Source: Escherichia coli
GTDB taxonomy: Bacteria > Pseudomonadota > Gammaproteobacteria > Enterobacterales > Enterobacteriaceae
Reading direction: 5' to 3' (one strand)
DNA length: 64,000 nt
NCBI RefSeq assembly: GCF_003018255.1
Contig: NZ_CP027440.1
Positions 40,322 to 41,527 of the stretch are shown here, in pieces. Numbering within the stretch: the first letter of the stretch is position 1; each line of letters begins with the position of its first letter. Position numbers and translations under genes: made by a program. The notes beneath the pieces were generated by a model that was not told the DNA's origin, made no database searches, and saw only the letters and a program-made list of their open reading frames with translations.

Positions 40322-40560
40322 TCTAATTGTTAGGTAGGTTGGTGAAGTCCGTAATCTCGAAAGAGGTTACGGACTTTTTGTTTATGGGGTGGAGGAGGTT
40401 CTGACCCTTTTTTTGATGATGATGGTAATTTGTTGATAATTAGTGCTGCGGGAAGGTAAGGATAAAAAAGGGTGGTAGCAGGAAAATGAGATGGTTTTGC
40501 TTTATTAACAACGGGCTAGACGTGTAGTATTTGAGTTCACTGCCGTACAGGCAGATAAAA

Positions 40561-40964
40561 TGCGAAAAAAAGCTCGTACTTTCGTACGAGCTCTTCTTTG
40601 AATATGGCGGTGAGGGGGGGATTGACTCGCTTCGCTCGCCCTGCGGGCAGCCCACTCACTGTGTTCGTGGTCTGTCCAACTGGCTGCGCCAGTTGTCGAA
40701 CCCCGGTCGGGGCTTCTCATCCCCCCTGGAGTGCAATATGCGAAAAAAAAGCTCGCACTTTCGTACGAGCTCTTCTTTGAATATGGCGGTGAGGGGGGGG
40801 ATTGACTCGCTTCGCTCGCCCTGCGGGCAGCCCACTCACTGTGTTCGTGGTCTGTCCAACTGGCTGCGCCAGTTGTCGAACCCCGGTCGGGGCTTCTCAT
40901 CCCCCCTGGAGTGCAATATGCGAAAAAAAAAGCTCGCACTTTCGTACGAGCTCTTCTTTGAATA
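40561..40964. repeat. Tandem array (~2.25 copies, period 178-180 bp) adjoining serW; each unit contains the 3'-terminal ~19 nt of tRNA-Ser plus the serW terminator hairpin and a ~115-bp GC-rich structured segment
   Basis: Unit starts at 40561, 40739 and 40919 (TGCGAAAAAAAGCTCG..., near-identical copies); TGGCGGTGAGGGGGGGATT (reverse complement of tRNA 3' end) recurs at ~40605, ~40785 and 40965. Confidence 0.85.
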
Positions 40965-41052
40965 TGGCGGTGAGGGGGGGATTCGAACCCCCGATACGTT
41001 GCCGTATACACACTTTCCAGGCGTGCTCCTTCAGCCACTCGGACACCTCACC
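40965..41052 (-). tRNA. serW: tRNA-Ser (anticodon GGA), 88 nt, encoded CCA end
   Basis: Minus strand reads GGTGAGGTGTCCGAGTGGCTGAAGGAGCACGCCTGGAAAGTGTGTATACGGCAACGTATCGGGGGTTCGAATCCCCCCCTCACCGCCA; long variable arm typical of tRNA-Ser; followed by hairpin + T9 terminator. Confidence 0.9.
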
Positions 41053-41095
41053 AAATTGTTTTGCTACCAAACCTCATGGGTGGCAACGGGGCGCT

Positions 41096-41124
41096 ACTAT
41101 AGGGAGTTGGAGTAAAACGGTCAA
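41096..41124 (-). promoter_or_regulatory. Sigma-70 promoter of serW (-35 TTGACC, 17-bp spacer, -10 TATAGT)
   Basis: Read on minus strand ~40-70 nt upstream of mature tRNA 5' end. Confidence 0.6.
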
Positions 41125-41305
41125 GAAGAATTTTAATGATAATTATTGTTTGCTCATACTGTAAACAAGTTGTGCAGTATATCTACATCGAGACAAGTTA
41201 TGGACTTATACTTCCAAAGTACTTCATACATATCACAAAATAAAAAGGCCGGCTAAACCGACCTTTTACTCGTTCTTTCTCTTCGCCCATCAGGCGGTAA
41301 AACAA

Positions 41306-41527
<222 letters not shown>

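Follow-up and report, generated by a model that had tools for sequence, protein, structure and literature searches.

Between clpA and infA of Escherichia coli, around 40.3-41.3 kb of the 64,000-nt stretch of DNA analyzed here (the window), a repeat array adjoins the tRNA gene serW, and four open reading frames (ORFs) run through it on both strands. Is any of these frames a gene? A preliminary description had taken them for probable artefacts, with one reservation: a small protamine-like protein, Tpr, is encoded within analogous repeats of the tyrT operon. Tpr was reportedly presented as a gene product by Altman et al. in 1981 (in Cell 26:299). We therefore asked what the serW repeats are, why long frames stay open in them, and whether the parallel with Tpr makes translation of any of these frames more credible.

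Organization of the clpA-serW-infA interval

The features of the interval are collected in Table 1. The hairpins of the clpA terminator (40344-40377, +) and of the infA terminator (41243-41267, -) form the ordinary bounds of the intergenic region. Judged by its position alone, about 44 nt 5' of the tRNA start, the candidate promoter is probably that of serW; a second promoter-like site, likewise with 10 of 12 consensus matches, lies upstream of serW at 41136-41165 (-).

Table 1. Features of the clpA-serW-infA interval (positions refer to the window; ATGs are those at the position of the Tpr start).
Feature	Position	Strand	Evidence or remark
clpA	ends 40321	+	
ORF, 177 aa	40505..41038	-	GTG start at 41038 within serW; crosses all three terminators; judged non-coding
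ORF, 194 aa	40531..41115	+	TTG start; antisense to array and tRNA; judged non-coding
Degenerate orphan type I-F CRISPR repeat	40535..40562	+	Rfam CRISPR-DR4, 29.7 bits (gathering score 35)
Intrinsic terminator 3, forming the partial end unit (0.4 copy)	40565..40598	-	Terminator scan; fold -20.6 kcal/mol
ORF, 60 aa	40598..40780	+	TTG start; judged non-coding
RtT element, unit 2	40605..40741	-	Rfam RF00391, 45.1 bits (gathering score 45), E = 3e-7
ATG in the GGAUGAGAA motif, unit 2	40718..40720	-	Opens 71 codons (MRSPDRGSTTGAASW...)
Intrinsic terminator 2	40743..40778	-	Same hairpin as terminator 1, U8; fold -21.4 kcal/mol
RtT element, unit 1	40784..40920	-	Rfam RF00391, 41.4 bits, E = 2.5e-6, model 1-130
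ORF, 120 aa	40802..41164	+	TTG start; antisense through the tRNA; judged non-coding
ATG in the GGAUGAGAA motif, unit 1	40898..40900	-	Opens 131 codons, part of the 177-aa ORF
Intrinsic terminator 1, adjoining the tRNA 3' end	40924..40959	-	Direct reading; fold -21.4 kcal/mol
serW, tRNA-Ser (anticodon GGA)	40965..41052	-	ARAGORN; Rfam tRNA, 53.8 bits; tRNA-Ser in RefSeq genomes
Candidate serW promoter	41096..41124	-	Consensus scan: TTGACC-17-TATAGT, 10/12 consensus matches
infA	41306-41524	-	

Tandem Repeats Finder reported a single array, at 40560-40983 (period 180, 2.4 copies, 97% matches). On the tRNA strand the order is tRNA, terminator, element, terminator, element and a third terminator. 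Terminator 1 consists of a hairpin of 16 bp, in which part of the U tract is engaged in A-U pairs, and a U-rich tail (U9). Of the three minus-strand hairpins a terminator scan listed terminator 3 alone, but folding revealed that all three are equally strong (about -21 kcal/mol), and a U-rich tract follows each of them. The elements in between are GC-rich, approximately 137 nt long and end in AAUCCCCCCCUCACCGCCA, which are the last 19 nt of the tRNA including CCA. In unit 2 these 19 nt (40605-40623) are identical to the tRNA 3' end, while the last 20 nt of unit 1 (40784-40803, AATCCCCCCCCTCACCGCCA) correspond to the tRNA 3' end plus one extra C, and because of this C the exact 3'-terminal run common to unit 1 and the tRNA is only 16 nt long.

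Both elements match the RtT RNA model of Rfam over its full length (1-130), unit 2 reaching the gathering score of 45 and unit 1 staying just under it. Scores are borderline in the same way for the serX copies of K-12 (46.3 and 36 bits), and RefSeq (PGAP) annotates an "RtT sRNA" at the equivalent serW site in other strains. Tandem units that adjoin a tRNA gene and end in about 19 nt of the tRNA 3' end are found here, and the K-12 tyrT and serX arrays are laid out alike. The serW array is thus a tRNA-Ser variant of the known RtT RNA family, and an already known kind of repeat. The RtT RNA of the E. coli tyrT operon (rttR) was reportedly described by Bosl and Kersten in 1991. In the literature consulted, rtT RNA is described as a processing product of the tyrT transcript that may modulate the stringent response (10.1101/2024.07.17.603846; references in PMC11623569). 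Matches to sX4 (33.5 bits against a gathering score of 70), Thr_leader, MicC and other Rfam families below threshold were judged to be chance or tRNA-derived and set aside.

RtT elements resemble the T-arm and acceptor 3' strand of their cognate tRNA, split in the T loop by a structured insert of about 80 nt. The left part reads ...CGGGGTTCGA (Ser) or AAGGTTCGA (Tyr) and the right part reads AATCC...CCA (window units; loci L005, L006 and L015-L134). A 5' segment of the elements is complementary to both T-stem strands, and the insert is missing from one E. coli copy (L055, 7757-7783), which reads as an intact T-arm.

On its far side the array is abutted by the degenerate CRISPR repeat, at whose edge the 194-aa ORF begins. 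Upstream of this repeat lies an AT-rich stretch (40400-40530). Other strains carry more CRISPR repeats at the same site, some of them at full score (50.1 bits), and these extra repeats result in 60-bp length steps between strains. The clpA-infA CRISPR-III (CRISPR4) locus has been described before (PMC3903273).

Repetition of a stop-poor unit explains the open frames

The four ORFs were recovered in the ORF list exactly as first described, with the same coordinates, strands and lengths, and the overlap with the tRNA and with its terminators, now resolved as three hairpins, was confirmed. Their translations had been called internally repetitive and rich in Arg, Cys and Pro. They are indeed repetitive, and Arg makes up 6.7-13%, Cys 2.3-6.7% and Pro 6.7-10% of the residues, compared to 6.0, 1.1 and 4.8% in a set of 30 long window ORFs. 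Beyond this bias, Ser is raised in three of the four array ORFs, and Gly or Ala in some. The statement that convincing Shine-Dalgarno (SD) sequences are missing needs to be divided. It holds for the 194-aa and 60-aa ORFs (anti-SD duplexes of -2.1 and -2.2 kcal/mol), but not for the 177-aa and 120-aa ORFs, which are preceded by SD-like purine runs (-7.7 and -11.8 kcal/mol). The run in front of the 177-aa ORF consists of the tRNA nucleotides GGUGAGGUG, the tRNA's own 5' acceptor strand, and that in front of the 120-aa ORF is the complement of the tRNA-like 3' end. Both runs are tRNA-derived sequence and therefore a consequence of the RNA sequence.

That the frames are held open mainly by repetition was supported by shuffling. 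When the whole 660-nt region was shuffled with dinucleotides preserved, none of 1000 sequences reached 177 aa (maximum 174). Shuffling one unit first and then repeating it at the original period gave ORFs of 194 aa or more in 2.9% and of 177 aa or more in 11% of the trials. The observed lengths are in the upper tail, not beyond, of what repetition of a GC-rich unit gives. This upper-tail position of the two longest ORFs even in repeat-aware shuffles counts against the explanation as artefacts, as do the SD-like runs before two ORFs and the 1981 Tpr report. The G+C content is 57% in the array and 65% in the Rfam-matched RtT elements, and due to this high G+C content there are only about two stops per strand and unit outside the two open frames. 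A stop-poor unit that is repeated is an adequate explanation of the open frames.

Variation follows the RNA structure and not a reading frame

Codon log-odds, trained on 33 long ORFs of the window, were -0.08 to -0.33 for the array ORFs, with the 194-aa ORF at -0.08. Real genes scored 0.32 +/- 0.06 (infA 0.40), while 109 shadow ORFs scored -0.21 +/- 0.20. Codon usage of the array ORFs is within the shadow-ORF distribution and far from that of genes. Searches of Pfam and NCBIfam returned no significant match for any array ORF, nor for Tpr or YchS, the latter annotated antisense to the tyrT repeats. RefSeq/PGAP annotates no CDS in the array in the 12 serW and two serX loci that were fetched, nor in the best 60 further matches. 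Matches to gene-caller output would in any case not be evidence of translation.

We then compared 33 non-redundant, diverse Ser-type elements in one alignment. Variation among them had no 3-base periodicity (phase entropy 0.45, 0.44 and 0.475; permutation p = 0.95), in a test that covers all six frames. Relative to the window copy, 65 of the 71 indels are not multiples of three. No reading frame is under protein-level selection.

The frames also differ between single loci. Among 13 serW and two serX loci the units are 177, 178, 179, 180 or 181 nt long, depending on the T run that ends the terminator hairpin and on the runs of G and C in helix 1. As a result of this homopolymer length variation, every one of these loci has its own set of ORFs. 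The two window units measure 181 and 179 nt, and the 194-aa ORF therefore passes from one frame to another between successive units. Elsewhere it is 214, 154, 150, 149, 134, 102 or 63 aa long from the equivalent start, or the start is missing. The 177-aa ORF is 180, 120, 86 or 66 aa long in other strains, or absent.

In contrast, the RNA structure is retained. The window element folds into five helices with -55.9 kcal/mol (z = -2.0). In the MAFFT alignment the variable hairpins were misaligned, so that an RNAalifold consensus came out poor (-17.5 kcal/mol, 20 pairs) and was set aside. Instead, we mapped the minimum free energy structure of the window element onto the alignment of the 33 sequences and counted pairs, a procedure in which the structure derives from the window sequence itself. 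Standard pairs were found in 91.2% of the cells, compared to 31-51% when the 3' partners were slid by one to three columns. Nine pairs have changes on both sides, four of eight in helix 3 and five of six in helix 4, and the covariation score was 0.108 versus 0.018-0.041 when slid. The outer helices read GGGGGG/CCCCCC and CCCC/GGGG in Ser-type elements and GGAAGG/CCUUCC and CUU/AAG in Tyr-type elements; these changes between subtypes are compensatory and in step with the T-stem of the cognate tRNA. These data show that selection acts on the RNA structure and not on any frame.

The initial suspicion that the ORFs are artefacts is therefore borne out by frames that vary between strains and copies, by non-genic codon usage and by the lack of periodicity, family matches and CDS annotation. 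We consider the ORFs non-coding by-products of the tandem RtT-type array behind serW and almost certainly not genes (probability roughly 0.9).

Low-level translation and the Tpr and YchS precedents

Translation could still occur in the form of pervasive, low-level synthesis of non-functional "proto-gene" products whose sequence is not selected. The SD-like runs upstream of two of the ORFs would fit such translation, and we know of no terminator with zero read-through, which also counts in its favor. However, terminators and stable structure make the array transcript a poor template, and we regard this reading as very unlikely.

A more specific possibility is that a Tpr-like peptide starts at one of the motif ATGs (40900 or 40720, -) on read-through transcripts and functions as claimed for Tpr. 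The parallel with tyrT indeed holds, and more strongly than first proposed, since both sets of repeats are RtT elements and Tpr (MRSFDQGSTRAPARERCRRQRPEGRSAQR) starts at an ATG inside GGAUGAGAA, the most conserved RtT motif. The serW peptide and Tpr are thus alike in having a homologous start position in a homologous RNA element, on the tRNA strand, and in their first 13 residues, eight of which are identical; moreover, the frames from both motif ATGs, each beginning MRSPDRGSTTGAASW..., remain open in the window. Compared at the level of sequence, the parallel is best described as true DNA-level homology. However, the BLASTP match covers residues 1-13 only and stops where the RNA-conserved motif ends, and the common residues are encoded by this motif, AUGAGAAGCnnCGAnnnnGGUUCGA. 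Past it the serW peptide has no similarity to Tpr, and it is not protamine-like: its first 29 residues include four Arg+Lys and four Asp+Glu (Arg 14%), compared to nine Arg+Lys and three Asp+Glu in Tpr (Arg 31%). A short (29-33 aa), basic and Arg-rich product is not what the serW frames of 71 and 131 codons would give. The ATG itself is replaced by GTG in units of three strains (L002, L010 and L011). The G run in front of it abuts the ATG directly, without a spacer, and is paired in helix 1, and both motif ATGs lie downstream of one or two strong terminators.

The length of the frame is equally erratic. Across 217 elements the frame from the motif ATG has between 5 and at least 131 codons, and between 17 and at least 131 in Ser-type elements; all three serX copies of K-12 stop after 18 codons. 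In the K-12 tyrT array (locus L005, copies at 1021, 1199, 1377 and 1674) the Tpr frame is intact in copy 1 of the four only, the others reading MRSFD*, MRSFDQGST* and VRTFD*, and in 52 of 74 Tyr-type elements of other species a stop is reached after five codons. Because the Tpr frame is not conserved itself, the Tpr precedent does not rescue the serW ORFs. A text search of the literature returned no usable experimental evidence on translation of Tpr, on ychS or on ycdV, hence the status of Tpr as a detected protein rests on citation alone. A functional Tpr-like peptide from serW is, in our view, highly improbable. On the sequence comparison, tpr and the antisense ychS rather look like lineage-specific accidents of the same kind as the serW frames.

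The 194-aa ORF resembles YchS (b1228, "putative uncharacterized protein") in being antisense to RtT repeats and internally repetitive, and both contain an antisense reading of the conserved motif (SNLGRSFSS and SNPGRGFSS). Otherwise the two have no similarity (E = 0.09), and YchS is a legacy annotation in K-12 for which serW and serX have no annotated counterpart. That the 194-aa ORF or a shorter ORF nested in it is a real YchS-like protein, expressed from an orphan CRISPR leader promoter, has next to no probability: the persisting ychS annotation, a weak promoter-like site at 40413-40440 (+) and the shared SN(L/P)GR(S/G)FSS stretch speak for it, but this stretch is the same conserved RNA motif read in antisense, and the ORF has a TTG start without an SD sequence and a codon score below those of genes, changes frame between the window units, differs in length or start in other strains, lacks family matches and was never called by PGAP in the loci examined.

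Distribution of serW repeats and related arrays

Of 5,426 complete E. coli genomes, no fewer than 411-412 have one or more units at serW. This count is a minimum, since loci into which type I-F cas genes are inserted did not enter it. The copy number is 0, 1 or 2 among 13 serW loci. K-12 has no repeat at serW, and its serW terminator is directly joined to the CRISPR relic; we infer that this junction is the product expected of recombination between repeated tRNA-end and terminator segments. In E. coli ETEC4068 and ETEC1701 (L012 and L014) a patch of about 35 nt is identical to the serX type (GTACGGGC...GCACACACC) within otherwise serW-type units. Such patches suggest that the arrays at serW and serX undergo gene conversion with each other.

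When one genome per species was scanned with GGATGAGAANNNNCGANNNNGGTTCGA, 120 loci were returned, mostly from Enterobacteriaceae, with a few distant relatives in Marinobacterium and Kangiella. Among the Ser-type arrays of other genera, linkage to ghrA (the serX locus) prevails, and Tyr-type arrays are linked to purU/narI; in Citrobacter sp. R56, Citrobacter sp. Awk 4 and C. amalonaticus Ser-type arrays are linked to clpA/infA. Outside Enterobacterales the RtT core motif was seen in Marinobacterium (L025, L047, L080 and L098), Kangiella (L100) and Oceanospirillaceae (L128); a further scan locus is from Neiella (L070). The elements from outside Enterobacterales carry compensatory helix changes, for example GGGUGGAU...AUCCACC, and a CCACCA-like 3' end was seen in the two Marinobacterium loci that were read (L025 and L080). 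In light of the motif in these genera, the RtT family seems wider than the enterobacterial tyrT and serX cases. A third Ser-like group (L039, L040, L113 (11491), L123 (12195), L129 and L130) ends in AATCCCCCCCGGTGC or ...GGAGC, not in a tRNA 3' end. These may be terminal, truncated copies of arrays or elements behind another gene.

How the frames may arise, and implications

We propose that the ORFs follow from the build of the repeat. Each unit of about 180 nt on the tRNA strand comprises an intrinsic terminator and an RtT element of approximately 137 nt, closed by the last 19 nt of tRNA-Ser including CCA. With about 65% G+C and a mostly helical structure, the element offers few stops in any frame, and a period near a multiple of three strings the open stretches together on both strands. 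The copy number (0, 1 or 2) likely shifts when the repeated tRNA-end and terminator segments recombine, and likely also through gene conversion with the sister array at serX. With a strong terminator placed right after the tRNA and ahead of the first RtT copy, expression would depend on read-through and may be low; RtT copies would be transcribed only when terminator 1 is read through. By analogy with the rtT RNA of tyrT, they might then be freed by tRNA-processing enzymes.

Several points follow from this explanation of the ORFs as by-products. Long ORFs on either strand of RtT arrays should not be called genes, and the evidence also undermines the legacy K-12 entries tpr and ychS. The copy-number polymorphism of serW RtT elements and the probable exchange with serX provide natural presence/absence strains in which the role of RtT RNA can be tested. 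A bolder thought is that arrays mimicking tRNA ends are not just passive repeats but decoys or sensors for enzymes or factors that act on tRNA 3' ends. Candidates would be processing nucleases, the CCA-adding enzyme or the stringent-response machinery; the serW copy-number polymorphism would then tune that activity, and any short peptide made from the motif ATG would add little to it. We hold such a role to be unlikely.

Comparison with the tyrT and serX arrays

In K-12 the tyrT/tyrV array, of a diverged type, has 3.1 copies of a 178-bp unit, with annotated rttR, tpr (b1229, on the tRNA strand) and ychS (antisense). Like this array, the serW array is built of tandem units of about 180 bp that follow a tRNA gene and repeat its 3'-terminal 19 nt at the end of each unit, and it shares the conserved GGAUGAGAA...GGUUCGA motif, the overall fold and the full-length match to the model. 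It differs in lying behind tRNA-Ser(GGA) instead of tRNA-Tyr, in its scores of 41-45 bits compared to 133-138 bits, and in that every unit has its own strong intrinsic terminator. Furthermore, its helix sequences are altered to match the T-arm of tRNA-Ser, and only a fraction of complete E. coli genomes, about 8% or more, possess the array at serW.

Another close relative is the K-12 serX array between ycdU and ghrA, which has the same tRNA-Ser (GGA) and the same unit type (181 bp, 3.4 copies). In strain NT1F34 the identity with serX reaches 93.8% over about 495 bp of array and tRNA, and serX-like patches occur in some serW units. The two arrays differ in their locus, in a 1-nt loop insertion (GCGACAGCC versus GCGCAGCC) and in several compensated stem changes. 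The insertion and stem changes shift all frames, and consequently the same motif ATG opens 18 codons at serX but 71 and 131 codons at serW.
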